DNA of 64,000 bases. Source: Candidatus Omnitrophota bacterium. GTDB taxonomy: Bacteria > Omnitrophota > Gorgyraeia > B26-G9. Within the stretch, counting starts at the first letter, position 1. The number at the start of each line of letters is the position of its first letter. The stretch is taken from the NCBI GenBank assembly GCA_043826565.1, contig JBDRPX010000004.1, positions 103,604 to 167,603 on the forward strand, in the 5' to 3' direction. The notes below the pieces were generated by a model that was not told the origin of the DNA, made no database searches, and saw only the letters and a list, made by a program, of their open reading frames with translations. Of this stretch, positions 628-52,380 are shown piece after piece. The translations under genes and the position numbers were made by a program.

Positions 628-678
628 GAATTGAAAGTTGTTTTTTGTTCTTGCCAATATTCAATATTCAACTTTCAG
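608..678 (+). repeat. conserved ~80-bp intergenic inverted-heptamer element, copy A
   Basis: TGAAAATTGATAATTGAGAATTGAAAG...TTGCCAATATTCAATATTCAACTTTCAGGAG lies immediately 5' of the start codon at 688. Confidence 0.7.
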
Positions 679-687
679 GAGTTTATA

Positions 688-1383
688 ATGATTGTTTCGG
701 TCCATCAACCTCAATATTTGCCGTGGCTTGGATATTTCGATAAGATATCGAAAAGTGATTGCTTTGTTTTTTTGGATACGGTACAATATAAAATAAGAGA
801 GTTTCAGAATAGAAATAAGATTCGTATAAAAGACGGATGTATATGGCTGAGTGTTCCGGTAATGTCTAAGGGGCATTATAAGCAGAATATAGATGAAGTC
901 TGTATCGATAATGACGCTGATTGGGCTATTGAACATAAAAAAAGTTTAATGGTTTGGTATGGAAAATCAGCTTATTTTAAAAAATATTTTCCCTTTTTTG
1001 AAGATGTTTACAGTAAAAAATGGGATAAGCTGATCGATCTTAATATTTACATTATAAAGTATATTCTGGAGCAGTTAAAAATTAATACGCCTTTATATTT
1101 GGAGTCAGAGTTAGGCTCGACTAAAAAAAGTACTGAGCGTATAATTGAAATTTGTCAAAAACTTGAAGCAGATATATATCTTTCCGGTAGTGGCGGAAAA
1201 GATTACATGGATGAAGGGTTGTTTTCGCAGACAGGGATTAGTTTGCAATATCAGCAGTTTAACCACCCCTGTTATCAGCAACAGTTTATTTCCACCGCAC
1301 ACCCTTTTCACCCATATATGTCAATTATAGATTTGCTTTTTAACGAAGGCCCCAGAAGTATTAATATTATTAGAGGGCAGTAA
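688..1383 (+). CDS. WbqC-like family protein (found in LPS/O-antigen loci)
   Basis: ATG at 688 is preceded by AGGAG at 676-680. The N-terminus MIVSVHQPQYLPWLGYFDKI...DCFVFLDTVQY matches the WbqC-like signature as I recall it. The upstream in-frame ATG at 631 has no RBS and lies inside a repeat element. Confidence 0.5.
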   Translation: MIVSVHQPQYLPWLGYFDKISKSDCFVFLDTVQYKIREFQNRNKIRIKDGCIWLSVPVMSKGHYKQNIDEVCIDNDADWAIEHKKSLMVWYGKSAYFKKYFPFFEDVYSKKWDKLIDLNIYIIKYILEQLKINTPLYLESELGSTKKSTERIIEICQKLEADIYLSGSGGKDYMDEGLFSQTGISLQYQQFNHPCYQQQFISTAHPFHPYMSIIDLLFNEGPRSINIIRGQ

Positions 1384-1400
1384 AGTTAAAGATTTTTCAG

Positions 1401-1452
1401 GTTTTGATTTTTGACTTGAATTTTTGCATTTTGATTTTTGAATTTTGATTTT
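1401..1452 (+). repeat. degenerate heptamer array (TTTTGAN-like, ~7 units) upstream of the exeA-like gene
   Basis: The sequence reads GTTTTGA TTTTTGA CTTGAAT TTTTGCA TTTTGAT TTTTGAA TTTTGAT. The related array at 55625-55672 has the same flavour. Confidence 0.55.
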
Positions 1453-1468
1453 AACCTGGAAGGTTACT

Positions 1469-2284
1469 ATGTACGAACAATATTGGGGCTTAAGCGAAAA
1501 ACCTTTTGAAAACACTCCTAATCCTTATTTTCTTTATAATTCTCCGCAGCATGAAGAAGGTTTATCCAGGTTATTTTATGTTGTAAGTGAAGGTAAGGGC
1601 GCGGCTTTGGTTACCGGAGTTTTCGGCTGCGGAAAAACACTTTTAGGAAAAACCCTATTTAAAGAACTTGACCGGGATATATATAAGACCGCGTTTATTT
1701 CTAATCCTTATATGACTTATGAAGAACTGCTTATGCACATTGCTTATCATTTAGGCGCGAGAGACCTGCCGACAAAAAAGCAGGATGTGCTGGTTAATGT
1801 GGTCTTAGAGCGCTTAGGGGAAATTCTACAGAATAATATGCGTGATGGTAAAAAAACAATTGTGGTGATCGATGAGGCGCATGTTATTACCGACCGCAAG
1901 GTGTGGGAAGAAATGCGCCTGCTGCTTAATTTTCAATTGGAAAACCAGTTTTTACTTACTTTATTAATATTGGGACAGCCGGAACTTAAGGAAATAATAG
2001 ATTCCAATAAGCAGTTTTCCCAAAGAATCGCGGTGAAATTTCACTTGGGCCCGCTTAATAAAAAGGAAACTCAGGAATATATTTTGCACCGTTTGAAAAT
2101 GGCCGGAAGGACCAAGCCTGTATTTTCTCAAGGGACCTTTGAATTGATCTATAAAAAGAGCGGAGGCATTCCCCGCCGGATAAACCAGATCTGTGATATG
2201 GCCTTATTTGCCGGATTTGGCAAAAACGCGTCCATGGTAAATGAAGCAATTGTCAATGAAGTGGGCTTTGATTTGGAGGAATAA
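1469..2284 (+). CDS. ExeA/GspA-like AAA ATPase
   Basis: MYEQYWGLSEKPFENTPNPYFLY...GKGAALVTGVFGCGKTLL carries a Walker A motif and VVIDEAH is Walker B-like, matching ExeA/MshM-type ATPases. GGAAGG RBS lies 7 nt upstream of ATG 1469. Confidence 0.7.
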   Translation: MYEQYWGLSEKPFENTPNPYFLYNSPQHEEGLSRLFYVVSEGKGAALVTGVFGCGKTLLGKTLFKELDRDIYKTAFISNPYMTYEELLMHIAYHLGARDLPTKKQDVLVNVVLERLGEILQNNMRDGKKTIVVIDEAHVITDRKVWEEMRLLLNFQLENQFLLTLLILGQPELKEIIDSNKQFSQRIAVKFHLGPLNKKETQEYILHRLKMAGRTKPVFSQGTFELIYKKSGGIPRRINQICDMALFAGFGKNASMVNEAIVNEVGFDLEE

Positions 2285-2287
2285 ATA

Positions 2288-2385
2288 ATAGCGTATAGCG
2301 GTTAGCGAGTAGCGTATAGAAAAGAAAAAAAATAGTAACAAGGGTTTCCTAAACGCTAAACGCTTTACGCTGAACGCTATAATGG
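2288..2385 (+). repeat. inverted heptamer-array element of the ACGCT type, copy 1
   Basis: Left arm TAGCGTA TAGCGGT TAGCGAG TAGCGTA. A 32-nt A-rich spacer follows. Right arm AACGCTA AACGCTT TACGCTG AACGCTA TAAT, then GGAGGG and ATG 2395. Confidence 0.7.
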
Positions 2386-2394
2386 AGGGCTACT

Positions 2395-3009
2395 ATGAAT
2401 ATTCTGGCTGTAGGGTGTCATCCGGATGATATTGAATTCGGCTGCGGCGGTACTTTAATAAAGCACGCGGAAAAAAATGATGATATTTATTTGTTAGTTT
2501 TGACAGACGGCGCAGTCGGAGGAGATCCCCAGGTAAGACGTCAGGAACAGTCAGAATCCGCGAAAATGCTGGGGGTAAAAAAGGTTTTTTGGGGAGGGTT
2601 TGAAGATACTAATTTGCCGGGTGACCGGCCTTTAATCTCGGCGATTGAAGAGGTTGTCAAAGAAGTCAACCCGGATATAGTTTTTTGTAATTATTTTCAT
2701 GATGTGCATCAGGATCATCGGGCCGCGGCAAAAGCCTGTTTATCCGCGACTAGATATATCAAAGAAGTATTGTACTATGAAGTCCCGACAACTCAGCATT
2801 TTGAACCGGAGATATTTGTTGATATTGGCAGAGTGCTGGTGAAAAAATGGGATTTGCTTAAAGCTCATGGCTCTCAGGTGGATAGAACCCGGGTGGAGAA
2901 TTTGAGTATCCTGGAAAGCATAAATGCCTGCGCGACATTTCGCGGATACCAGGGCCGGGTTAAATTTGCTGAAGGGTTTAAAGCAGTAAGAATTTTAAGG
3001 GATATATAA
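2395..3009 (+). CDS. PIG-L/LmbE family N-acetylglucosaminyl deacetylase
   Basis: N-terminal AVGCHPDDIEFGCGGT motif is typical of the PIG-L family. GGAGGG RBS lies upstream. Confidence 0.75.
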   Translation: MNILAVGCHPDDIEFGCGGTLIKHAEKNDDIYLLVLTDGAVGGDPQVRRQEQSESAKMLGVKKVFWGGFEDTNLPGDRPLISAIEEVVKEVNPDIVFCNYFHDVHQDHRAAAKACLSATRYIKEVLYYEVPTTQHFEPEIFVDIGRVLVKKWDLLKAHGSQVDRTRVENLSILESINACATFRGYQGRVKFAEGFKAVRILRDI

Positions 3010-3145
3010 AAATCCTGTAGGGGCGGCGGCTTGTCCCCGCCCGAGTTAAATAAATTGATAAAAAAGAGTTTCTATTATATAATAAAAGAGTAATTCAAAG
3101 GAGGAGTTATATCCACAGCTTTATGGTGATTAAAGGATTAATTAC

Positions 3146-4192
3146 ATGAAGACATTAGTAGCTTTCGGCATATCATTTTTTACTGTACTTATCTGCACTC
3201 CTTTATTTCGCAGGATTGCGCTATATCTTAATATTCTGGATTTCCCCAGCAAAAAGAAAATACATAAAGACCCGATCCCTCTTTTAGGAGGATTGGCGAT
3301 CTATTTTGGCGTAATCATTTCTTTCCTGTTTTTTCAGCAAAGCTTCTTTGTTTTTTGGCCGATTCTCGTCGGAGCTACCATAATCATGTATATGGGCGCT
3401 CTTGATGATATGAAAGGGCTTTCCGCGCGCATACGTTTATTTATTCAGATAGCTGTGGCTTTATTTGTTGTCATGGCCGGAGTGAGAGTGAGTTTTTTAC
3501 CGAATAATATCTGGGGTAATATCGGAGAGTATATCGTAACAATATTCTGGCTGGTGGGAGTAACGAATGCTTTTAATTATCTGGATGGACTGGATGGTTT
3601 AGCTGCCGGGTCAGCAGCTTTAAATTTTTTATGTTTTTATGTAATTTTGTACAGCACCGGCCAATTTCCCCTGGGATTAACCGCAACTATATTAATGGCA
3701 GCCTGCCTGGGGTTTCTACCCTATAATTTCATGAATAAGAAAAAGATGTTCTTAGGGGATGCCGGGAGTATGTTTTTAGGTTTTTGTTTAGCCGGCATGG
3801 CGGTTATCGGGCACTGGGCCGGAGATGCGCTGGTTAAATTATTTATCCCCATATTGGTAATCGGGGTGCCGATCTTTGATATGATCTTTACGACAATTAT
3901 GCGTATCAAAGAGGAGAAAATAAGGAATATCCTGGATTGGCTTAAATATGGAGGCAAAGATCATTTTCACCATTATCTGGTGGATTTGGGTTTAGGGCAG
4001 AAGGGGGCGGTTTTATTTATATACTATCTTACAGCGTCATTAGGCTTAGGAGCGGTAATGGTAAGCAATGACAATGCGGTGGAGGGGGTTTTAACGCTTT
4101 TACAGGCTTCAATAATTTTTGGCGTCATCGGAGTTCTGATTGTTGTCGGTAAAAAACACAGGTTTGAAAAGAAAACAGGGCAGGAAGAGTAA
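3146..4192 (+). CDS. glycosyltransferase family 4, WecA/TagO/MraY-type polyprenyl-phosphate sugar-1-phosphate transferase
   Basis: Multi-pass membrane protein with DFPSKKKIHKDPIPLLGG and NAFNYLDGLDGLAAG motifs characteristic of the MraY/WecA family. At 348 aa it fits WecA better than MraY. Confidence 0.75.
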   Translation: MKTLVAFGISFFTVLICTPLFRRIALYLNILDFPSKKKIHKDPIPLLGGLAIYFGVIISFLFFQQSFFVFWPILVGATIIMYMGALDDMKGLSARIRLFIQIAVALFVVMAGVRVSFLPNNIWGNIGEYIVTIFWLVGVTNAFNYLDGLDGLAAGSAALNFLCFYVILYSTGQFPLGLTATILMAACLGFLPYNFMNKKKMFLGDAGSMFLGFCLAGMAVIGHWAGDALVKLFIPILVIGVPIFDMIFTTIMRIKEEKIRNILDWLKYGGKDHFHHYLVDLGLGQKGAVLFIYYLTASLGLGAVMVSNDNAVEGVLTLLQASIIFGVIGVLIVVGKKHRFEKKTGQEE

Positions 4193-4274: not shown

Positions 4275-4303
4275 TTGACTTATATGGGAAAATGTGGTAC
4301 ACT
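4275..4303 (+). promoter_or_regulatory. sigma70-like promoter
   Basis: TTGACT at 4275-4280 is followed by a 17-nt spacer and TACACT at 4298-4303. This places the TSS a few nt before the riboswitch aptamer. Confidence 0.4.
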
Positions 4304-4307
4304 TGTA

Positions 4308-4392
4308 TTAGTGGAAAAAGGCAAACTCGTGGTAACGCGAGGGCGCAAAGCCGTGCACCCCGAAAATTCGGGGCAGGCAGGTTGCCCGATGA
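4308..4392 (+). ncRNA. candidate c-di-GMP-I (GEMM) riboswitch aptamer
   Basis: The segment GGCAAAC-[CUCGUG GUAA CGCGAG]-GG-CGCAAAGCC-[GUGCACCCCG AAAAUU CGGGGCAGGCAGG]-UUGCCCGAUG matches the GEMM-I layout, including the hallmark GGCAAAC and CGCAAAGCC strings. The first helix is capped by a GNRA tetraloop. The 3' UUGCC pairs with the 5' GGCAA to form P1. Confidence 0.6.
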
Positions 4393-4406
4393 ATTAATTT
4401 ACGTTA

Positions 4407-4437
4407 CCCAGGCAGGAGTTTGCCTGGGATTTTTTTT
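4407..4437 (+). terminator. intrinsic terminator (riboswitch expression platform)
   Basis: Stem CCCAGGCA / TGCCTGGG with loop GGAGTT, followed by a T8 run. The 3' arm (AGTTTGCC) is also complementary to the aptamer's 5' P1 strand (GGCAAACT), which allows alternative folds. Confidence 0.65.
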
Positions 4438-4536
4438 CGGAATATTAAAAAGTGCCAGGTATGAATGGGGAAAATCAGTAAAAGTGCCAGGCATAATCAG
4501 GGATGAACGTAATATATAAAGGAGTTGGAGCGGAAA

Positions 4537-5694
4537 ATGCCCAGGTTGCCAAGAGTTTACATTGAAAATTCAGTTTATTATGTAACATGTAAGGGATTGC
4601 AAAACCAGGTAATTTTTAAAGACGCGAGGGACTACGAAATGTACTTTGAATTGTTGAAAAAATACAAAGAACAATACGCAGTCAAACTTTATGCTTATAC
4701 TTTAATGCATAATCATTTGCATTTATTAATGGAAGTTGATAAAGAAGCCAGTATTTCCACAATTATGCACGATTTGACCTCTTCTTACACAAAATATTTT
4801 AATGGCCGCTATGACCGCAAAGGCCATTTATTCCGAGAAAGATTTAAAGCCGCTGTTGTAGAAAAAAATCCGCAAATCCTTTTGGACCTTACCGCATATA
4901 TCCACCTCAATCCCAAGCGATTGAACTTAGGCATACAAGGACGTACGTATCCGTATAGCAGTTATGAGCTTTATCTGGACTATTCCCCAAAGTCCGATAG
5001 AGGGCTGGCTATAAAAAATGAAATTGAAAGTATTGTTAATAAGCTGGTTGGCGAAAATTATGTTGAGTTTATGAACCGCATGCAGGATAACGCGGAGTTC
5101 CAGAAAAATTATAAAAAACTTCAGCGTAAAGGAATGATCGGCTCAGGTGAATTTATGAGCAGAGTTAAAGAAGCTATCGAGCAGCAGCGAAGTGAGCCCG
5201 AGGAACCGGAGTTAGAAGAAAAAATATTACATTCTAAGAATGTTCTTATGAACACGGGAGTGGCGGTATTGCTTTTGAGCATAAGCGCGGGGGGCGTTTA
5301 TTTATATTTTAATTACGCAAATAAGGTATTGGATAAACCCCAGATACCTGTTGCGACAGTTGAGCTGCAGTTGAAAGACCTGAATAATACCGAGTGGCAG
5401 GTGGAAATGTTCAATATGGATGGGTCCCTGGCCCGCGCGGATATTTTAAGTTTTATGCAGGGGAAATTCAGTTCGGCATATCTTTCTCAGTTTGAATTCC
5501 CGCATATTAATTATTCTGTTGTTTTTGAAGGAAATAAAATAATTTGGGAAACAATGCAGACATCGGCAACCGGGACCGCGTCATGGCGCGGTGAAGTGGT
5601 AGACGGCGAGATGCTGGGAATGGTCAGCCTGCGGCAGGAAGGGAAAGAACCGCAGGATTTTTCTTTTAAGAGTCTAAAATACAGGAGGAGATAA
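4537..5694 (+). CDS. HUH Y1-transposase-like (IS200/RayT-like) domain protein fused to a TM helix and an uncharacterised C-terminal domain
   Basis: HNHLHLLME (the HuH motif) and AYIHLNPKR (catalytic Tyr + NP) match the IS200-like/REP-associated tyrosine transposase fold. A TM segment VLMNTGVAVLLLSISAGGVYLYF follows, then ~120 unrecognised residues. ATG 4537 lies 12 nt after AAGGAG; the track's 4525 start is a TTG adjacent to the RBS. Confidence 0.6.
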   Translation: MPRLPRVYIENSVYYVTCKGLQNQVIFKDARDYEMYFELLKKYKEQYAVKLYAYTLMHNHLHLLMEVDKEASISTIMHDLTSSYTKYFNGRYDRKGHLFRERFKAAVVEKNPQILLDLTAYIHLNPKRLNLGIQGRTYPYSSYELYLDYSPKSDRGLAIKNEIESIVNKLVGENYVEFMNRMQDNAEFQKNYKKLQRKGMIGSGEFMSRVKEAIEQQRSEPEEPELEEKILHSKNVLMNTGVAVLLLSISAGGVYLYFNYANKVLDKPQIPVATVELQLKDLNNTEWQVEMFNMDGSLARADILSFMQGKFSSAYLSQFEFPHINYSVVFEGNKIIWETMQTSATGTASWRGEVVDGEMLGMVSLRQEGKEPQDFSFKSLKYRRR

Positions 5695-6193: not shown

Positions 6194-9100
6194 ATGAAGA
6201 TGAAAAGATCAATAGTAGTTATGATGTGTATGGTTGTTTTTTTTACAATTCACTTTGCTGGTATTGATGATGCCAAAGCCTTTCAGATTAAAAGGGTGAT
6301 CAGGGGGTCCTATAGCCAGGCAATTGATGAGGAGGTAACAGTTGTTGATCTTACTTCTTTATTGGGCGGGGTGAACCTGGTTCCTGCGAAAACTATTCTT
6401 TTTTATACTATTGATCTTGATGATGAGGATGCCGAAGAGACTTTTACCAATGTAGCTTTAGACAGCCCTTCGGATCTGCTGATCAGCCGGTTTACCTCAG
6501 GTACGGGGCTTACAGTTAATTATGAACTTGTGGAGTTTGTTTCCGGGGTTAAAGTTATGCGCGGTCTTACCACTGTTCCGGAAACAGCAACGATTAAAAC
6601 TGTAACTTTACCTCAATCCATAATTGTTAATAAATCATATGTAACGGTTAATTCTAATGCTGTAAGAGGTTCTAATCTTAATGAAGAATTAAATACGTTT
6701 GCCGCGGAAATAGTTGATGAAACTACGGTCAGGTTCACAAGAACTGTTACTACTTCCCGATTTAATAATACTCTGGCTTATCAGGTTGTTTGTTTTGAAG
6801 GCCTTGATGGTTTAGGCGATGATGTCGTCTCAGTTCAGAAAGGGATAGATATTCTTCCTTCACCTGCCGGCGGGATGAGCCTTACTGTAGGTATAAATAG
6901 TGTTCAAACTGATAAATCTTTATTAATATTTTCAAGCCGGCCGGATACTCTTGCTGACGGTGATGAAGATATAATGTGTGTGGAGGGAATATTAAATGAT
7001 GCCGGCGGCGGAATGAGTGATGCGATACTTTTTAACCGTCAGGAAAATAATAATGATGATGTCACTTTATACTGGTTTGTAATTACTTTTAGTAATGAAA
7101 CTTTTGTTCAGAGTAAAACCCAAACCTTTATTTCTAATAGTAATCCCAACTTTACCATAGACACAGCAATTGTGCCCAGCCGCAGTTTTATTCAAGCATC
7201 TGTTTCGATTACCGGAGGCGGGACATCAGGTAAAGAAGAAACTACTCATGCCTTATATATTACTAATCCTACGACCATAGATACGCAGTGTTCCACAACC
7301 AGTGCTTATACTGTAAAACTTTCCTGGTTTGTAACGGAAATGCCGCCCTTAGAAGTTACTTATCCCAACGGCGAAGAAATTTTTGAAGTCGGAACAACAG
7401 AAAATATTACCTGGAATCATTCAGATGACGTTTTAAATACAGATTCAATGAGTATTGATCTTTCTATCAACAGCGGCAGTACGTATCCTTTAAATGTTAT
7501 AACCGGAGTTGACCCGACTTTAGATACATATGCCTGGAATATTCCCGCGGAAATAAGTTCAACCGGTATTATCGGAAATACCATAAGAGTTAAAATTACA
7601 GATACGACGATCAGCGCAAGAAATTTTGATACCTCAGACGCTGACTTTATAATAAAGGGAAGATTAATTATTGATCAGCCGCCGGACACCTGGCGTTTAG
7701 GCGAGACTCAAAATATAACCTGGGATGTACACGGTAGTTTAAATAGTTTACCTACAAACACTATGACGATTATGCTTTCTACGGATGGGGGCGGAAGCTT
7801 TGCTCATACTGTGAGTGCAGTGGCTGACCCGGGTGCCGGACAGTCTGATGGAAGTGCCGGCTCCGGAAGTTATGGGTGGACTATCCCATCAGATATGGAT
7901 GGTGAAAATTTAATCGGTACGGATAATCAAATAAAACTTATTCTTAATTACGACCCGGATGCGCCGAAGACAACAGTAACCAGTACAAGTTCTAATTTTG
8001 TTTTAAAAGGGCGAATTTTTAATGTTTCCCCGGCTAGTGATGAAACCTGGTTTTTGGGTGAAACAAAAAGTATTACCTGGGATAAAAATGGACACTTCGG
8101 CGCCGGTATTGCCGAGGGAACAGTAGATGTTTATTATTCCAGTAATGGCGGTTTGTCATATGGTACTATTGTTGCTGTAAGCCAACCTGCGGGGACAGAT
8201 GGTTCGGGGGGGAGTTATAATTGGACAATACCCAATAACACTCCTTTAGAAAATCCTGATTCGAAAATTAAAGTTTTTCAAACTACAGATACTTCGGTTT
8301 ATGGAGAAAGTGCTAATTTTTCTTTAATCTCATCACTTTTGCTGGATATTCCCAGCGGTACGGGAATTCTCTGGAAAGTGGGAACGGCTCATGATATTGA
8401 GTGGACAACTGCCGGTTCGGTTAGTATGGTTGACTTGCTCTATGATTCCGGCTCGGGTTATGTTTTAATTACACCTGCCGCGGGTATAGCTAATGCCGAT
8501 GTTTACAACTGGACAATTCCCGACGCTATAAGCAATAGCGTTAAGGTAAAAGTTCAGGATCACGATAATACGAATATATACGATGAGAGTGATAATTTAT
8601 TTTCCATAAAAGGATCAATAAGTGTTACCGAGCCTCATGCAACCGAAATTACACAAGTAAGTATAAATAAAGTTATTCAGTGGAATACTACGGGAAGTGT
8701 AGCCGGAACCGTAAACATTCGTTTGTCACAGAATGGCGGTTCTTCTTATGGGAGTATCATTAATTCAGTTGACGTTTCCAGCGGTTCGTATTCCTGGGCT
8801 CCGGTTGCCGGAGATATGGGTACTAATAATGTGATCAAAGTAGGGCTGCAGGGAGATGAAGACCCGGGAACCGGGACAGCCGGGGAAACAGGAGTTTTTG
8901 CCGTAGAAGCCAGTATTGACCTTACTTATCCGGATGCTTCCGGGTTAACGTATGGTATCGGAGATGAGGTTTATATCAAATGGACATCAAACCCCGCTGC
9001 GTTTGGAAACGTAAATATACGTTACTCAACGGATGGCGGATCTAATTATAATGGATTTATTGCCGACGGTGTTGCCTCAAATAATGTTCCCGGAGGAGAG

Positions 9101-12100
9101 ACAGAGATCGGATATAAGTGGACAATTCAGGATGTCGTGGGAATGGTGAGCCCGACTTGCCGTGTAAAAGTATATCAGGTTGGGAAATTAGCACAGGTGT
9201 ATAGCGAATCACAATATGATTTTAATGTTAAAGGTACTTTGAACTTAACCGCGCCGGATGGAGGAGAAACCTGGTATGTTGACCAGTTTGAAAGTATTAC
9301 CTGGACCAAAGGCGGAGATCTAGGAACTCTAAAACTTGCCTATTCAATTAACGGCGGTTCTGACGGGTATCCGGCGACGATCGCTACCAGTATAGATGCG
9401 GATGATCTTTCTTATCCTTGGCAGATCCCGGATGCTATTGGTACGCAGTTAAAAGTAAAAGCTATTCAGGAAACAGATACAACTACTAATGATGTATCCG
9501 TAGGGGTATTTACGATTAAAGGAAGATTTTCAATATCTGCTCCGGTGGGCGGCGAGACCTGGTATGTGGGAACTCAGGAAAATATTGGGTGGACCACTTA
9601 TGGCACCATTGATAAGGTAAATTTGTATTATTCTACTGACGGCGGCGGAACATTCGGTTCTACGATCGCTACCAATCTTACCAATGCCGAAGGATATCTG
9701 TGGACAATTCCGGACGCGATAGATAATGATATCAGAGTAAGAGTAGAAAGTTTCTATGATAATACAGTTGCTCATGAATCAACCGGTAACTTTACTATTA
9801 AAGGAAGAGTTTTTGTTACCGCGCCGAACGGCCCGGAAGAATGGCGGGTCGGAGCAACGGAAAATATTACCTGGACGGTGTATGGAGCTATTGGAAATGT
9901 GGAGATTCGATATTCCACTAACAGCGGTGCCAGCTATGATACAGTTATCGTAGCCAGTACTCCGGCATTGAACCAGACTTATGCCTGGACCAATATCCCG
10001 GATGAGATCGGCACAAGTTTAAAAGTGAAAATTACCAGTATCTCAGACGGTACAGTTAATGATGAGTCAGACGCTGATTTTGAATTAAAAGGGGTTTTAA
10101 CTTTAACCGCGCCTAATGGTGCTCAGATATGGAACGTTGGGAATTCCGAAAATATTACCTGGACTAAACAGGGAACTTTGGGGAATGTGGAACTGCGTTT
10201 TTCCACGGACAGCGGCGTGACTTTCCCGGTTGGCAATGTGATCGCGACCGGTGTAGCGGCAACCGCAACACCGCATCCCTGGACAATCCCGGATAAGATC
10301 GGAGATAAGCTGCGGGTAAGAGTTATGTTATTAAATGACCCGACAAATGTTTATGATGATTCTGATAATGATTTTGAGATCAAAGGTAAGTTGACATTGA
10401 CGGCACCGAACGGGCCGGAAGAGTGGGGAGTGGGGACAAGCCAGGCAATTACCTGGGCCCGTTTTGGAAGTATCGCGAATGTTAAACTGGAATATTCCAC
10501 CGACGGGGGCAATACATTTCCTAACACGATTACAGATTCAACAAGTGCTTCCGCGCAAACTTATAATTGGACGATTCCGGACGCGATCGGAACTTCTTTG
10601 CAGGTTAAGATCAGTGATGCATCAGATGGCGCGGTGAGTGATACTTCTGATGCTAGTTTTGAAATTAAAGGCCGCTTAATATTACTGCATCCGAACGGCG
10701 CGGAAACCCTGGCGGTAAATCAGCCTTATACTATTGACTGGACAACTTATGGAACGATCAATAAAGTAAATCTCTATTATTCAATTAACGGCGGAAGCAG
10801 TTATGACGCGAATATTGTTTTAGCTTTAAATAATACCGGAAGTTATGGCTGGACAATTCCGGATGCTATCGGTTCGCAATTGCGCGTAAAGATTAATAAT
10901 GATGATGATACAACAGTCGAAGATGTGTCAAACGGTGATTTTACGATCAAAGGTTCGGTAACCTTGACCGCGCCGAATGGCGGTCAAACCTGGATCGTTG
11001 ACGATTCTCAGAATATTAGTTGGAGCAAACAGGGAAGTATCGGAACGGTGCAATTGGATTATTCGACTAATGGCGGAACCAGTTATGATTTTAGTATTGC
11101 TGCCGGGGTGGCTTCCGGGGATCTAAGCAAAGCCTGGACAATCCCGAACGCGATCAGCAATAATGTGAAAGTAAAAATTACTCAGGAATCTGATACTTCA
11201 GTTAATGATGAATCAAACGCGGCGTTTGAAATTAAAGGTTCAATACTTGTTACAGCTCCCAATGGCGCGGAATCATGGTCTATCGGCGGGACTGAAGATA
11301 TTACCTGGATACGCCATGGAAGCATTGGAAATATTCAGATCCTTTATTCAACTGACAGCGGTTCGACTTATCCGTTTACAGTGACCGGTTCAACAGACTC
11401 TTCGACACAGACATACAGCTGGGTGAACATCGCGGATACTCCATCGACAACCTGCCGTGTAAAGATGACTAGTTTGTCGGATTCCTCGGTTACTGATGAC
11501 TCAAATTCTAATTTCCGGATCAGGGCAAATATTACTTTGACCGCACCGAATGGATTAGAGGAATGGATCGTCGGGACAACTGAAAATATCACCTGGACCA
11601 AAACCGGTTCAATTCCTAATGTAGCTTTGGAATATTCACTTAACAGCGGATCGACTTATCCCAAAGCGATCGTGACAACTTCCGGTGAAGCTTTAAGTTA
11701 TACATGGACGATCCCGGATGATATTAGCGGCCTGGTGAGAGTACAGATCAGAAATACATCGGATGCGACGGTATCAGATACTTCTAATGCTGATTTCAGT
11801 ATTAAAGGGTCAGTAACCATGGAAAGTCCTGACGGCGGAGAAGTCTATGTTGTCGGTTCAGCCTATGATATTGAATGGTCATATGTCGGATCAATTCCGA
11901 ATGTAAAACTGGAATATTCTATAAACGGCGGGTCGACATTTCCCTATGAGATCATCGCGTCTACTCCGGCAGTTGCTTTAGCTTATTCCTGGACTGTTCC
12001 GGATACAATTACCGGACAGTTGGTAGTGAAAGTTTCTGATGCTGTAGATTCAACAGTTGATGATGATTCTGATGCTTATGCAAAGATCAGAGGTTCTTTA

Positions 12101-33013: not shown

Positions 33014-33198
33014 GATTTGATGTTAAGCAAGGAGGCGGACCATTGTCAGGATTAAGATGGCAGAGGGCAGATGACAGGAGTCAGTATTCAGAAAGTATAG
33101 TTCAGATATTTGGAAGCAAATGTTTGAAAAATATATTCTGTCTACTGGCTTCTTTTTTTCTGACTTCTGTTTTCTGATTTCTGTCTTCCGTAAAAAAT

Positions 33199-33774: not shown

Positions 33775-33904
33775 ACAGGTCGCAGGTTGCAGGTTTCAAG
33801 ATATACTGTAACAGTCATAGTTTTTGAGACTTGTGACATGAGACTTGAGACATGAAGAGTGACTTTTTGTGTAATTATAGGTATAATAAGGACATAAGTA
33901 TAAA

Positions 33905-38749: not shown

Positions 38750-40933
38750 ATGGGTAAAAATACTGATGCAATGGTTGTTCAATTGTTAATTGAGCATGAA
38801 ATTCTGGATAAGAAAGAGATTCAGGCTTGTTTTAAGGAAGCTGAAAAAAAGAATAGTTCACCGATACATATTATCGCCGCCCGCAGTAAAACCCCGGAAA
38901 AAAAGCTTTTAGAAATTATTGCTAAAAAACTTCAAATAGAATGTATAAATTTGAAAACCATAGAAATAGATGCCAATGCGCTTAAAAAGGTTCCGGTCAA
39001 AGTTTCCTCCTATTATAAATTTGTTCCGATTCGTTTAGAAAATCGTGTATTGACCATTGCCGTAGCTTACCCGCTGGAGGTAAGGATGCTGGATGAAATC
39101 AGAACGCATCTGGGATTTAATATTGAAATGGTATTGGTTCGGGAAGAAGACGTTCTGGAAATGCTCAAAAATTACTATGGGTTAGGCGCGGAAACAGTTG
39201 AAAAGATTATTGCCCAAAAGACGTATGATTCTCCGACGGAGAAAGTAAAGGAAGATGTTGTCGATGACCTGGAAGCTCTTAGCGGTGCCGCGTCGGTAAT
39301 TCAGCTGGTAAATCAGATTATTTTAGAGTCCTATAAAAAAAGAGCGACAGATATTCACATTGAACCGTACCGGAATAAAGTGCGGTTAAGATACCGTATT
39401 GACGGCGTGCTTTATGAATCTAAGGTTTCTCCGGAAGTTAAGAATTTTCTTACTCCCATACTTTCCCGAATTAAATTGATGTCTAATTTAAATATTGTCG
39501 AGCGGCGTTTGCCGCAGGACGGACGGGCAGTAGTAAAAGTCCAGGATCAGACTCTTGACTTGAGAGTATCGTTTATCCCGACACCTTATGGGGAAAGCGT
39601 GGTCATTAGAATATTACCGGCGGCAATGCTTTTTGGATTGGAGAGGCTGGGGCTTACGGAGTCTGAACATGAGTGTTTAAACGAATTAATTCAAAAGCCG
39701 AATGGTATTGTTTTTCTGACCGGGCCGACCGGAAGCGGAAAGACGACTACATTATATGCTTGTCTTTCATGTATTAATACCGATAAACGTAAAATAATCA
39801 CCATTGAAGATCCCATAGAGTATGAACTTGAAGGCATAACTCAAATACAGATAGCTCAGGCGGTCGGGCTTGATTTTGCGCGGGGATTGCGCAGTATGCT
39901 GCGCCATGATCCCGATGTCATGATGGTTGGGGAGGTTCGGGATCTAGAAACTGCGGAAATTGCGATCAGGGTTGCGCTTACCGGACATTTAGTATTTTCC
40001 ACATTACATACTAATGATGCGGCCAGCGGTATTACCAGACTTGTGGATATCGGTGTTGAGCCGTATCTTGTAGCTTCCAGTGTCGAGGCTTTTATCGCGC
40101 AGCGTTTAGTAAGAATGATTTGTCCTGCTTGCCGGGAGGAAGATTTAGAGATTGCCGATAGTATAAGGAGACAGATCTCCCAGGATTTGGGATATGATAA
40201 TTCTCAAGAAATTAAAGTTTTTCGCGGTAAGGGTTGTCAGGAATGTAATTTTAGCGGGTATTACGGCCGAACCGCTATTTATGAAATACTAATGCTTAAT
40301 GAGGCGCTAAGGGAATTGGTTTTGCATAAATCTTCCAGTGATGAGATCAAGAGGATGGCGATGGCTAATGGAATGAGGACATTGCGCCAGAGCGGCTGGT
40401 TAAAGGTGCTTGAAGGAGTAACCACTCCGGAGGAAATATTGCGGGTTACTCAAGCAGATAAATCTGTTTCTAAAAAAATATCAGAAAAGAAAACTTCCGC
40501 CAGTGAGATTATGGAAATTGCTAAAGAGACATTACAAAAACATATTGCTCCCAAAAAAAAGGAATTTAATCCCGCGGATAGACGTGTGTATGAGCGCCTG
40601 GATAACAGAGTGTATGTGCGCTATACAATATTTAAAGCCGAAAAGAAAAAAAATGTCGAAGGTGAGTATGAAGCAGTACAAGTGGCAGTAACAAGTAATA
40701 TCAGTGCTGGAGGATTACTATTTAACGCGGTGGAAAATCTAGCGATAGGGCTGATAATTGACCTTACGCTGGAATTGCCTGATGAGGGTCCGGTGCAATG
40801 TCTGTCCCGGGTGGTTCGGGTTGAGGAAAGAGTGCCTAATAAAGATTATGAGATCGCGATATGTTTTCTTGATCTGCCCAGCTCGGAACGGGCACGTCTT
40901 AATAGGTTTGTTTTACGCGACATAAAAAAATGA
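38750..40933 (+). CDS. gspE: GspE/PilB-family secretion ATPase with a C-terminal PilZ domain
   Basis: N-terminal GSPII_E N-domain; Walker A LTGPTGSGKTTT; tetracysteine CPACREED...GKGCQECNFSGY. The C-terminal ~120 aa carry the PilZ motifs RRVYER and NISAGG. Confidence 0.8.
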   Translation: MGKNTDAMVVQLLIEHEILDKKEIQACFKEAEKKNSSPIHIIAARSKTPEKKLLEIIAKKLQIECINLKTIEIDANALKKVPVKVSSYYKFVPIRLENRVLTIAVAYPLEVRMLDEIRTHLGFNIEMVLVREEDVLEMLKNYYGLGAETVEKIIAQKTYDSPTEKVKEDVVDDLEALSGAASVIQLVNQIILESYKKRATDIHIEPYRNKVRLRYRIDGVLYESKVSPEVKNFLTPILSRIKLMSNLNIVERRLPQDGRAVVKVQDQTLDLRVSFIPTPYGESVVIRILPAAMLFGLERLGLTESEHECLNELIQKPNGIVFLTGPTGSGKTTTLYACLSCINTDKRKIITIEDPIEYELEGITQIQIAQAVGLDFARGLRSMLRHDPDVMMVGEVRDLETAEIAIRVALTGHLVFSTLHTNDAASGITRLVDIGVEPYLVASSVEAFIAQRLVRMICPACREEDLEIADSIRRQISQDLGYDNSQEIKVFRGKGCQECNFSGYYGRTAIYEILMLNEALRELVLHKSSSDEIKRMAMANGMRTLRQSGWLKVLEGVTTPEEILRVTQADKSVSKKISEKKTSASEIMEIAKETLQKHIAPKKKEFNPADRRVYERLDNRVYVRYTIFKAEKKKNVEGEYEAVQVAVTSNISAGGLLFNAVENLAIGLIIDLTLELPDEGPVQCLSRVVRVEERVPNKDYEIAICFLDLPSSERARLNRFVLRDIKK

Positions 40934-42180: not shown

Positions 42181-42244
42181 CGAAGTTACAGGTTACAAGT
42201 GACAGGTGACAAGTTGTAATAAATAAATCAAGAAAAAATCAATA

Positions 42245-43589: not shown

Positions 43590-44061
43590 AAACAGAAGTC
43601 AGAGGTCAGAAATCAGAGGTCAGAAGAAAAAAAATCTGTCATCTGTTATCTGTCATCCGACGTCTGGTTTTACCTTAGTCGAGGTGCTGGTTGCGGTGGT
43701 GGTTTTGTCCGTAGGATTAGTCATTATATATGAATCATTCTTAATGTCGCTCGATGTCATAAATTTGTTCTTCAATCGGTTAAATGCGCAGTTTTTCATA
43801 AGTGAAAAAATTGCTCAGGTTCAGCATGGATTCGACCAGCCGGCGGGAACTTTTTTCTCTCCAAATCAAAACGGAATAGTTACTTTAAATAACCGTCTGT
43901 TTAATTGGCAAATAGATATGAATTTGCTTGATGTCCGAGGGGAACTTTATAAGCTTGATACTGTTGTTTCCTGGAAAGAGGGATCTAAAGATAGTGTGAT
44001 CCGCCGGTCTACGCTGGTTAAAAAATATTTTTCTAATTCCTGCCCGGAGAAAAAAAGGTAA
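43567..44061 (+). CDS. minor pseudopilin (GspH/I-like); start uncertain
   Basis: Class III signal G|FTLVEVLVAVVVLSVGLVII. The only in-frame ATGs are at 43567/43570, overlapping the gspG 3' end. That start implies a 34-aa basic leader encoded through a heptamer repeat. The track's start at 43465 would overlap gspG by 125 nt. Confidence 0.45.
   Translation: MMLIIGSKNRSQRSEIRGQKKKNLSSVICHPTSGFTLVEVLVAVVVLSVGLVIIYESFLMSLDVINLFFNRLNAQFFISEKIAQVQHGFDQPAGTFFSPNQNGIVTLNNRLFNWQIDMNLLDVRGELYKLDTVVSWKEGSKDSVIRRSTLVKKYFSNSCPEKKR
43591..43672 (+). repeat. inverted heptamer arrays (CAGARNT x5, an A-run, then TCTGTYA x3-5) at the gspG / minor-pseudopilin junction
   Basis: The sequence reads CAGAAGT CAGAGGT CAGAAAT CAGAGGT CAGAAGA AAAAAAA TCTGTCA TCTGTTA TCTGTCA TCCGACG TCTGGTT. 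Confidence 0.6.
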
Positions 44062-50721: not shown

Positions 50722-52380
50722 ATGCTGAATAAACAGAAAATTATCAGCGAGTTTCTAACCGCTAAAGGTATAATTACAATTGACCAATTGCAGCAGGTCA
50801 AACAGCTGCAGGACCGTACTCAAGAAAGCATTAAAAGTGTTTTTAAAAAACTTAATATTTTTTGTGATAATCAGTTGGGCAATCTAATCATCGAAGAATT
50901 AGGTCTTTCCTTTATCGACCCTTTCACATTTACTTTTAAGCCGGCAATGCTGGAACTTACAGAATCTTTTTTTGCTAACCGTTTTCGGGTTATGCCGCTT
51001 GATATCCAAGGGGATGAGTTGACGATAGCGCTGGATAATCCTCTTAATTTTATTTTACTGGAATATTTCTCTAAAGTTTTAGGCTGTAAAATTAATGGTG
51101 AAATGATCCGGGTAGAAGCTATGGACGAACTGCTGAAAAAGTATTACCCCATAGCTTCGGAAGATATGGTTGCGCCTTCTCCGGAAGAGACCACAGATAG
51201 CGAGGGACATATAGCGGATGATGCTCCCGTAGTCCAGCTGGTAAGCATGCTGATTTCTGACGCGTATAGAAGAAGAGCCAGTGATATTCATATAGAGCCG
51301 TTACAGGAAACATTACGTATTCGTTACCGTATTGACGGGGTATTGCAGCAGGTCCAATCCCCGGTAAAGAAATTACAGGCTTCTGTAGCCAGCCGGATTA
51401 AATTAATGGCGGGAATGAATATCGCCGAGAAACGATTGCCTCAAGATGGAAGGATCCGTACGATTGTTGATAATCGGGAATTTGATTTAAGAGTTTCCAC
51501 TCTTCCGTCGCATTATGGGGAAAGTGTAGTTCTGCGTATTTTAGATAAAAGAGTTATGAATGTTGAAGAATTAGGGTTTTCCGATTTACAGCAGGAGGTT
51601 TTTAAAAATATTGCTAATTTCCCCAATGGAATCATTCTGGTTACCGGCCCGACCGGAAGCGGTAAAAGCACTACTCTTTATGCGGTGCTAAGTAGTATTA
51701 ATCGGGCGCAAAGAAAGATTCTAACGGTAGAAGATCCGGTAGAATATCAGATCTCCGGTATTAATCAGGTACAGGTAAAACCTACAATCGGACTTTCTTT
51801 TGCGATGGTCTTGCGGTCTATGCTTCGGCAGGCTCCGGACATTATAATGGTCGGTGAAATCAGAGATTTAGAAACCGCAAGTATTTCCGTGCAGTCGGCT
51901 TTGACCGGACATTTGATCTTTAGTACATTGCACACAAACGATGCCTCCAGTGCGATAACCAGGCTTGTGGATATGGGGATTAAACCATATCTTGCGGCAG
52001 CAACATTGCGGGCGGTTTTGGCCCAGCGGCTTATCCGTCTTTTATGCCCGCATTGTAAAGAAGCTTATAATCCTCCGAAAGATGAGGTGAAAATTTTAGA
52101 GATTGATTTGACGGATAAAGATGTGGTTTTATACCGGGCGAAAGGATGCAGCCAATGTTCTCATTCCGGTTATCTGGGACGCACGGGAATTTTTGAACTA
52201 TTGGTATTTGATGATGATATTCGGCAATTAACACATAAGCGTTTTCCGAGTACGAAAATTAGAGAAAGAGCCCGTTCGCGGGGTATGATCACCTTGAAAG
52301 AACATGCGACCGAAAAAGTCCTGAGCGGATTGACCAGTTTTCAGGAATTAGTGAGAGTTACGCAAAGTGATGTGGACTAG
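50722..52380 (+). CDS. pilB: type IV pilus assembly ATPase PilB
   Basis: N-terminal GSPII_E N-domain; VTGPTGSGKSTT; tetracysteine CPHCKEAY...GCSQCSHSGY. Confidence 0.85.
   Translation: MLNKQKIISEFLTAKGIITIDQLQQVKQLQDRTQESIKSVFKKLNIFCDNQLGNLIIEELGLSFIDPFTFTFKPAMLELTESFFANRFRVMPLDIQGDELTIALDNPLNFILLEYFSKVLGCKINGEMIRVEAMDELLKKYYPIASEDMVAPSPEETTDSEGHIADDAPVVQLVSMLISDAYRRRASDIHIEPLQETLRIRYRIDGVLQQVQSPVKKLQASVASRIKLMAGMNIAEKRLPQDGRIRTIVDNREFDLRVSTLPSHYGESVVLRILDKRVMNVEELGFSDLQQEVFKNIANFPNGIILVTGPTGSGKSTTLYAVLSSINRAQRKILTVEDPVEYQISGINQVQVKPTIGLSFAMVLRSMLRQAPDIIMVGEIRDLETASISVQSALTGHLIFSTLHTNDASSAITRLVDMGIKPYLAAATLRAVLAQRLIRLLCPHCKEAYNPPKDEVKILEIDLTDKDVVLYRAKGCSQCSHSGYLGRTGIFELLVFDDDIRQLTHKRFPSTKIRERARSRGMITLKEHATEKVLSGLTSFQELVRVTQSDVD

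Follow-up and report, generated by a model that had tools for sequence, protein, structure and literature searches.

The gene at positions 4537 to 5694 of a 64,000-nucleotide stretch of DNA from a Candidatus Omnitrophota bacterium (assembly GCA_043826565.1, contig JBDRPX010000004.1, positions 103,604 to 167,603 of the forward strand; the whole stretch is termed the window) was found to encode a domesticated HUH-fold protein of the RayT type (TnpA-Y1 class 2), which is a single-pass membrane protein and not a transposase. The gene, referred to here as HUH-TM, is a fixed operon gene that no longer moves DNA. It stands behind a riboswitch for cyclic di-GMP (c-di-GMP) and ahead of genes for a small secreted protein and a giant secreted protein, and its product probably helps to control or support this giant surface protein.

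ATG 4537 was taken as the start codon, homologues beginning with the residues MPRLPR at this position; the mechanically called open reading frame (ORF) opens at TTG 4525. The ORF proposed earlier, in a reading of the sequence alone (the sequence-only reading), is real, its product being 385 amino acids plus stop rather than the 386 amino acids given there. Residues 26-123 matched the Pfam family Y1_Tnp (E=1.3e-13; 51.5 bits, cut-off 23). The NCBIfam model REP_Tyr_transpos scored 63.8 bits over residues 4-141, which is under its equivalog cut-off of 80, and transpos_IS200 reached 21.3 bits against a cut-off of 55, leaving the protein outside the IS200/IS605 family. The motif at the tyrosine reads Y-I-H-L-N-P and not the Y---Q of IS200/IS605 TnpA proteins. 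A search of the PDB with the single sequence gave no match; 4ER8 was reached with the family profile only, as the single significant structure (E. coli TnpA-REP, 4er8_A, E=4.9e-4). In the profile alignment H60 and H62 lie on the HMH of this structure and Y121 on its Y115, the catalytic residue of RayT. The top Foldseek match was likewise 4er8_A (template modelling score 0.75 normalised to the target, root-mean-square deviation 2.2, 149 columns), followed by IS608, ISDra2 and IS200 transposases. The HUH domain of RayT type that had been proposed from the sequence is thus upheld by the family match and by the alignment of the active site. Of the motif HNHLHLL cited for it, the HuH pair H60-L-H62 is genuine, while H58 is not part of it and is replaced by proline in most homologues in an alignment of 104 sequences.

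An AlphaFold (AF2) model of the protein, with a mean predicted local distance difference test (pLDDT) score of 86.8, divides into four regions, namely the HUH fold (residues 1-150), a helical extension (150-220), a helix (240-262) and a beta-rich region (285-385), with low-confidence linkers on both sides of the helix at 240-262. Likeness of the extension to helix-turn-helix (HTH) or DnaA_C domains was sought in residues 136-226 by a PDB profile search and with Pfam, and only noise was returned. The helix corresponds to the transmembrane helix read from the sequence, its best 19-residue hydropathy window scoring 1.84 in the window protein, with a mean of 2.2 over 104 homologues. The C-terminal domain, also anticipated, was modelled as a beta-barrel; residues 278-385 modelled alone gave a pLDDT of 93 and a barrel with eight main strands and one short strand. 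A Pfam search with this domain gave no family. The solved structures that resemble it (NHBA, nitrobindin, avidin and fatty acid-binding protein-like/calycin structures) matched weakly (E about 1e-2, template modelling scores below 0.5), and because of this no fold family was assigned to the barrel.

A profile of the barrel retrieved 1299 cluster representatives, most of them 180-260 amino acids long and consisting of an N-terminal signal peptide, a low-complexity linker and the barrel, which is sometimes present in tandem. The named proteins among these matches were all from Omnitrophota and, as judged from these sequences, the barrel is a secreted domain of this phylum. The HUH-TM protein itself has no signal peptide. 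The recurrence of the barrel in proteins with signal peptides supports a cytoplasmic N-terminus and a C-terminus on the outer side of the membrane.

The setting of the gene was compared in a species-level set, for which a scan of one genome per species gave 185 matching stretches, with 80 loci kept. Some of these records carry other phylum labels (Planctomycetes, WOR-3, Deltaproteobacteria), labels of metagenome-assembled genomes (MAGs) being unreliable, and 'Candidatus Undivivens' was placed in Omnitrophota. A protein search returned 424 homologues; the best 120 were nearly all about 380-410 amino acids in length, and most of the named ones among them came from Omnitrophota MAGs. Across the 80 loci, HUH-TM is the first gene of a module that is conserved throughout the phylum and consists of a promoter, a c-di-GMP-I riboswitch, a terminator, HUH-TM, a small secreted protein and a giant protein with immunoglobulin-like (Ig-like) repeats. 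Where 4 kb or more of sequence follows the gene (58 loci), an ORF of at least 1000 amino acids was found downstream in 56. The small partner was found to be a conserved family, reached by an iterated profile in 52 of 65 loci. A custom covariance model was applied to the loci; of 79 whose upstream sequence is available, 74 have an aptamer directly ahead of the orthologue, and one other aptamer was detected in 1.27 Mb of sequence. In nine loci the glycan genes come first and are separated by about 350-680 bp from HUH-TM, after which the small protein and the giant ORF follow.

These results agree with the sequence-only reading, which had placed the gene in a riboswitch-controlled operon with a giant surface protein and had judged that it did not look like a mobile insertion sequence. 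No second HUH-family gene was found within the 64-kb window, the family being single-copy there, and neither flanking hairpin repeats nor pairs of repetitive extragenic palindromic (REP) elements were found at the gene. No tnpB adjoins it, as its neighbours are a WecA-like transferase gene upstream and the small secreted-protein gene downstream. A REP-like family was sought in the window and not found; the large repeat families there all lie in the coding sequence of the giant gene, and between genes the repeats are arrays of heptamers. Shorter paralogues of 304-342 amino acids were also observed (loci L079, L081, L089 and L084-L088), some of which lack the barrel, with the L084-L088 group carrying its signature residues. 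L079 holds a tandem pair of such paralogues (7718-8641 and 10001-10930), each with its own riboswitch.

In all three loci that were sampled for it, a stand-alone barrel gene follows secretin genes (accompanied by tetratricopeptide repeat (TPR) genes in two of the three) and lies just upstream of the module of HUH-TM, small protein and giant gene. In L211 and L212 this barrel gene stands after the secretin/TPR genes and before the HUH-TM gene. In L210 the HUH-TM protein (7995-9347) has a degenerate active site and carries a domain resembling the small protein, fused in place of the barrel, with the barrel encoded by a separate gene (3237-3986) downstream of a secretin gene. The exchange of one domain for the other suggests a joint periplasmic function for the HUH-TM protein, the small protein and the barrel.

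In the clade of the window protein (104 full-length homologues), H60 was found in 104 sequences, H62 in 103 and N125 in 102, while position 121 is tyrosine in 97 and histidine in seven, and H123 is nearly invariant. An alignment of the 80 species-level orthologues showed that H60, H62 and Y121 are all kept in 48, with one or more of them replaced in the remaining 32 by combinations such as RHF, QNY, REH, SSY, STY, ENY, KMY and others. These 32 degenerate orthologues were found to keep the barrel signature (26/32), the riboswitch (28/32), the leader motif described below (31/32) and a large downstream ORF (24/26, compared with 32/32 for loci with the intact triad), and the transmembrane helix is retained as well. 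Other residues are invariant in the 80 orthologues, namely D32 (79/80, the last being a gap), Y84, K86, N89, G96, R102, G202 and F206, with H123 present in 79. Since the replacements occur in orthologues of the same operon, DNA cutting cannot be the conserved function and a metal-tyrosine nuclease is not needed. What the role in the operon does need, from this pattern of conservation, is the basic and aromatic surface of the HUH fold together with the 'GSxEF' element in the helical extension. The earlier suggestion of a single-stranded DNA nickase/ligase is weakened accordingly for the family, with its residues still in place in the clade of the window protein. As they are strictly kept there, nicking or metal binding may persist in that clade as an extra.

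A sequence motif accompanies the gene. One or two copies of AAAGTGCCAGGCA(C) were identified between the terminator and the start codon in nearly every locus, and its full form, found in single-copy leaders, is a 17-bp palindrome, AAAGTGCC-A-GGCACTTT. Allowing at most one mismatch, the conserved 12-mer AAGTGCCAGGTA gave 114 matches in 79 leaders of 260 bp each and 20 in the remaining 1.25 Mb, several of these 20 falling in extended leaders or paralogue loci. The motif starts 11-12 nt past the T-run of the terminator in 50 of 65 loci and 10-14 nt past it in 62; the spacer sequence between the two is not conserved, and the terminator stems vary between loci while the motif is constant. Among 121 distinct two-copy leaders, the spacing of the copies was 20-23 nt (30 leaders), 30-33 nt (67), 42-43 nt (4), 51-54 nt (9) or 62-64 nt (9), with 119 of the 121 within these five classes, none between them and outliers at 76 and 87 nt. 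The periodicity of this spacing is strongest at 10.5-11 nt (resultant 0.89). In the short paralogues of L079, L081 and L089 the palindrome directly adjoins the -35 hexamer of the promoter before the riboswitch. Spacing, palindrome and position together point to a double-stranded site that is read on one helix face by a dimeric protein and is placed to touch RNA polymerase.

Metagenomes were also scanned with the motif first, using 'T-run, 10-14 nt, motif' as the query unit, which gave 67 testable loci. An ORF of the HUH family follows in 58 of these, and eight of the nine exceptions were chance matches without a riboswitch, such that 58 of 59 genuine motif units precede a HUH-family ORF. The conceivable link between a RayT enzyme and the palindromic repeats of the genome, raised as speculation in the sequence-only reading, found no support, as the only conserved DNA element linked to the gene is this leader motif, which occurs almost nowhere else in the 1.27 Mb and is not a REP hairpin. 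An Rfam search of the motif region with E values up to 1 gave no family. Two other readings of the motif were rejected by inspection: as a hairpin, its variants GTGTC, GTGAC, CCACGCA and CCAGAC are uncompensated on the other arm, and as a sigma-54 promoter (TGGCAC on the minus strand) it is in the wrong orientation, and a TTGC element is missing at the required distance. A motif variant, CCACGC, was observed in L076, L081 and L084-L088.

From this co-occurrence of gene, motif and operon, the preferred reading, a tentative one, is that the HUH-TM protein may act as a transmembrane regulator or tether for the giant-protein operon, built from a transposase fold. The transposase-derived cytoplasmic domain would be a sequence-specific nucleic-acid-binding module for which DNA cutting is optional, and its likeliest target would be the AAAGTGCCAGGCA(C) site in its full palindromic form. 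Fixed 11-12 nt beyond the T-run, this site could meet the front edge of the polymerase at the point of termination. The outer barrel would read the state of the secretin/type II secretion system (T2SS)-like machinery or that of the giant protein, and transcription of the 27-kb gene would in this way be subject to an envelope-status checkpoint in addition to that of c-di-GMP. Stated in its most specific form, the proposal is of a new class of transmembrane regulator, in which an often catalytically dead HUH DNA-binding head would sit on phased palindromes one polymerase footprint past a riboswitch terminator, and a periplasmic barrel would couple the state of secretion to transcription of the giant gene; in that form it is doubtful.

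Several observations weigh against a regulator of this kind. Y1-type HUH domains are known to bind single-stranded hairpins (4ER8 complex, PMC3479197) and not phased double-stranded palindromes, and the PDB profile search and Pfam found no HTH in the helical extension with which such a site might be read. The link between the protein and the motif is one of co-occurrence only, and an unlinked transcription factor could bind the motif. Spacing is off-phase in a few GC-rich loci (for example 18 nt in L211). One locus, L111 (SDBU01064443.1), possesses a complete leader of riboswitch, terminator and palindrome with a gene resembling that of the small protein directly next to it and no HUH gene between. 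The motif was also found to be complementary to the 3' arm of the terminator plus the U-tract, which leaves room for a role at the RNA level, although the uncompensated variants and the changing terminator stems speak against one. Finally, the strict conservation of H60, H62 and N125 in the clade of the window protein implies that the metal site still matters there.

It is unlikely, though still to be weighed seriously, that HUH-TM is instead an accessory of export or assembly, meaning a structural membrane partner that helps the giant protein to be secreted, glycosylated or anchored. Docking to the cargo or to the secretin would then fall to the barrel and the small secreted protein, and the HUH fold would be a scaffold (for an ATPase or ribosome, for example) with no nucleic-acid role. 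Such an accessory would fit the predicted co-transcription of the gene with a secreted partner 2 nt away and with the giant cargo, the position of barrel paralogues beside secretin, TPR and peptidyl-prolyl isomerase genes, the dispensability of the catalytic residues and the T2SS-like genes that fill the neighbourhood, as they do in the T2SS-like loci near Omnitrophota giant genes (bioRxiv 10.1101/2023.11.21.568195). It leaves unexplained the basic/aromatic patch (Y84, K86, N89 and R102) that is invariant in all 80 orthologues, as well as a phased DNA motif that tracks the gene even in short paralogues without the barrel.

An active RayT-like nickase/ligase of single-stranded DNA at the membrane, which would cut or rejoin a local site in the leader or in the intergenic heptamer arrays so as to switch or protect the giant gene, for example, is improbable. 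The intact H60, H62, Y121 and N125 of the window protein, nearly invariant in the clade of 104 sequences and aligned to the RayT active site, are what would be expected of it, but 40% of the species-level orthologues in the same operon lack the catalytic residues, seven of the 104 close relatives have histidine for Tyr121, no REP-like hairpin family flanks the gene, and by inspection the motif lacks the compensatory changes that a hairpin should show. There is also little probability that the protein is a membrane-tethered RNA binder, whose HUH fold, resembling an RNA recognition motif, would hold the AAAGUGCCAGGCA element of the 5' leader near the ribosome-binding site and so keep the 27-kb mRNA at the membrane or gate its translation. 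The motif does lie within the transcribed leader and in one orientation in most loci, the second copy is often 22-25 nt ahead of the start codon, and the predicted RNA fold allows pairing between the two copies. Set against this, the copies are spaced in step with the turns of the DNA helix, a site that occurs singly is a 17-bp palindrome, and in L079, L081 and L089 the site is upstream of the -35 hexamer and therefore not part of the RNA made from that promoter. A mobile IS200/IS605-type element or a true REP-mobilising RayT, suggested by nothing other than the database labels of the homologues ('transposase', 'REP element-mobilizing transposase RayT'), is effectively excluded by the single copy in the window, the fixed position in a conserved operon over 80 species, the lack of an adjoining tnpB and of flanking end hairpins or REP pairs, and scores under the NCBIfam cut-offs for both families.

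Comparison with E. coli TnpA-REP/RayT (YafM; PDB 4ER8) showed that the HUH fold is shared, that the HuH histidines, the tyrosine and the Asn-Pro following it align, and that both proteins have an 'SS' serine motif after the catalytic helix. HUH-TM is also single-copy and vertically inherited, as PMC5581495 describes for domesticated RAYTs. RayT is small, soluble and monomeric, and it cleaves the REP hairpins that flank its gene (PMC3479197). In contrast, the HUH-TM protein has 385 amino acids, is membrane-anchored, bears a periplasmic barrel and is encoded in a fixed operon without REPs, and its orthologues are often without the catalytic residues. A REPtron is recognised by inverted REP hairpins that flank the gene and occur in many genomic copies, whereas the repeat linked to HUH-TM is a direct twin motif only, nearly absent elsewhere in the 64 kb plus 1.27 Mb. 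Similarly, the subterminal hairpins, tnpB partner and multiple copies of an IS200/IS605 element are not what was found, there being one copy in the window at a position that is fixed in 80 species. HUH-TM is therefore regarded as an architectural and functional variant of the RayT kind and not as a RayT, because it falls under the RayT equivalog threshold, has no REPs and is not soluble.

TnpA-Y1 subclass 2.1 (RAYT group 1) carries C-terminal DnaA_C/HTH domains, and some TnpA-Y1 subclasses are not associated with REPs (Quentin et al. 2018, PMC6006769); neither 'membrane' nor 'transmembrane' appears in that survey. HUH-TM resembles subclass 2.1 in its class-2 HUH core, its serine-containing extension and the presence of an added C-terminal module. 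The module of subclass 2.1 is a soluble DNA-binding HTH, whereas that of HUH-TM is a transmembrane helix plus an extracytoplasmic barrel.

Membrane-bound one-component regulators of the ToxR/CadC/TcpP type bind DNA at the membrane. The modelled layout of HUH-TM is analogous to theirs, with a cytoplasmic N-terminal domain that binds nucleic acid (DNA binding by HUH-TM being putative), one transmembrane helix and a periplasmic C-terminal domain. An HUH fold takes the place of their OmpR-type winged helix, and since no such winged helix was found with Pfam or in the searches of the helical extension, the protein is not a member of the ToxR/CadC family. The Rep proteins of geminiviruses and adeno-associated virus have HUH domains that bind double-stranded repeats beside their own gene and autoregulate its transcription. 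They provide a precedent for an HUH domain that recognises repeated double-stranded sites, but they belong to a different HUH class (Rep, not Y1 transposase) and are viral, soluble and equipped with helicase domains.

Giant secreted proteins beside T2SS-like genes and PilZ proteins have been described in Omnitrophota (West-Roberts et al. 2023, bioRxiv 10.1101/2023.11.21.568195), and the locus in the window has this same setting. A transposase-like gene, a riboswitch and RNA control by c-di-GMP have no occurrences in that report. A 2026 complete-genome preprint counts 'transposases' flanking giant genes as mobile DNA. The HUH-TM gene, the riboswitch and a membrane-bound Y1 protein are unmentioned in the 2023 preprint on giant genes, the 2026 preprint on complete genomes and the 2018 survey of TnpA-Y1 proteins.

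The coordinates of the module in the window are collected in the following table.

Table. Features of the HUH-TM operon, numbered by position in the window.
Feature	Position	Strand	Basis or remark
WbqC-like	631-1383	+	Pfam/NCBIfam
AAA_22 ATPase	1445-2284	+	Pfam/NCBIfam
PIG-L deacetylase	2395-3009	+	Pfam/NCBIfam
WecA-like GT4 transferase	3146-4192	+	Pfam/NCBIfam
Sigma-70-type promoter-like site	4275..4303	+	Consensus scan; TTGACT, 17 nt, TACACT, with TG preceding the second hexamer
c-di-GMP-I (GEMM-I) riboswitch aptamer	4311..4390	+	Rfam, 60.1 bits
Intrinsic terminator (riboswitch expression platform)	4407..4437	+	9-bp stem (4407-4428) plus T8
Leader motif, copy 1, AAAGTGCCAGGTA	4449..4461	+	Conserved 12-mer AAGTGCCAGGTA from 4450, 12 nt after the T-run
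Leader motif, copy 2, AAAGTGCCAGGCA	4481..4493	+	32 nt after copy 1, three helical turns
HUH-TM protein, coding sequence	4537..5694	+	ATG 4537 to stop 5694, 385 amino acids plus stop
RayT-like HUH-fold domain, cytoplasmic, residues 1-150	4537..4986	+	Contains H60, H62, Y121 and N125
Conserved helical extension, residues 151-220	4987..5196	+	G202 and F206 invariant; without known fold or family
Single transmembrane helix, residues 240-262	5254..5322	+	AF2 helix, hydropathy
Extracytoplasmic beta-barrel domain, residues 285-385	5389..5691	+	Model; signature WETMQT...WRGE
Small secreted protein, 145 amino acids	5696..6133	+	Signal peptide; 2 nt past the HUH-TM stop codon
Giant secreted protein, 8939 amino acids	6194..33013	+	Signal peptide; about 65 tandem 95-amino-acid Ig-like repeats

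The glycan-type genes upstream (631..4192) travel with the module and occur in identical order in loci L001-L009. In related loci an equivalent site of the form TTGAC...TATACT was found ahead of the aptamer. The window aptamer scored just above the cut-off of 59 with its 60.1 bits, which were obtained on RF03167, the 'GGC' variant c-di-GMP-I-GGC, while related leaders scored 36-60 bits on RF01051 (cut-off 35). The sequence of the window aptamer reads CGCAAAG, where the consensus of the c-di-GMP-I-GGC model reads CGCGAA. As CGCAAAG is that of the standard class and related leaders match RF01051, it was treated as an ordinary c-di-GMP-I aptamer. Complementarity exists between aptamer bases 4319-4331 and the terminator's 3' arm; binding of c-di-GMP should accordingly free the terminator, and the riboswitch would then be an OFF switch by which the operon is turned off. 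An ORF of 75 amino acids at 4292-4519, which overlaps the riboswitch, the terminator and the motifs, has no family match and is almost certainly not a gene.

The repeats of the giant ORF are 285-nt units with weak Ig-like matches to Kre9_KNH. Downstream of it are ATP synthase genes and a T2SS/type IV pilus (T4P)-like set that includes an ATPase combining MshEN with PilZ. MshEN domains were identified in two ATPases of the T2SS/T4P type, at 38750-40933 (the one that also has PilZ) and 50722-52380, and because of these domains the secretion machinery may be a second target of c-di-GMP, besides the riboswitch. Arrays of 7-nt units were observed between genes at 1402-1452, 33136-33188, 33825-33855, 42183-42214 and 43593-43625, with the units TTTTGAT, TTCTGTC/TTCTGAC, TGAGACT, AAGTGAC/AGGTGAC and CAGAAAT/CAGAGGT, some of which are mutual reverse complements across the window. 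Heptamer arrays of a similar kind are present in the leaders of L045, L052 and L060.

Giant genes are the signature oddity of the ultrasmall and probably predatory Omnitrophota, and a conserved control region of such genes is defined here, comprising a c-di-GMP riboswitch, palindromic sites at a fixed distance and a membrane-anchored HUH protein. For transposon biology, HUH-TM offers a clear example, from bacteria, of a Y1/RayT fold that was taken over for a cellular function at the membrane and that has repeatedly lost its catalytic residues. Routine annotation is corrected as well, given that HUH-TM genes are labelled 'transposase' and that a recent preprint takes transposases beside giant genes as a sign of mobility. 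If the proposed regulatory role is true, a new class of regulator would link the state of the secretion apparatus to transcription of the giant surface-protein gene in Omnitrophota.

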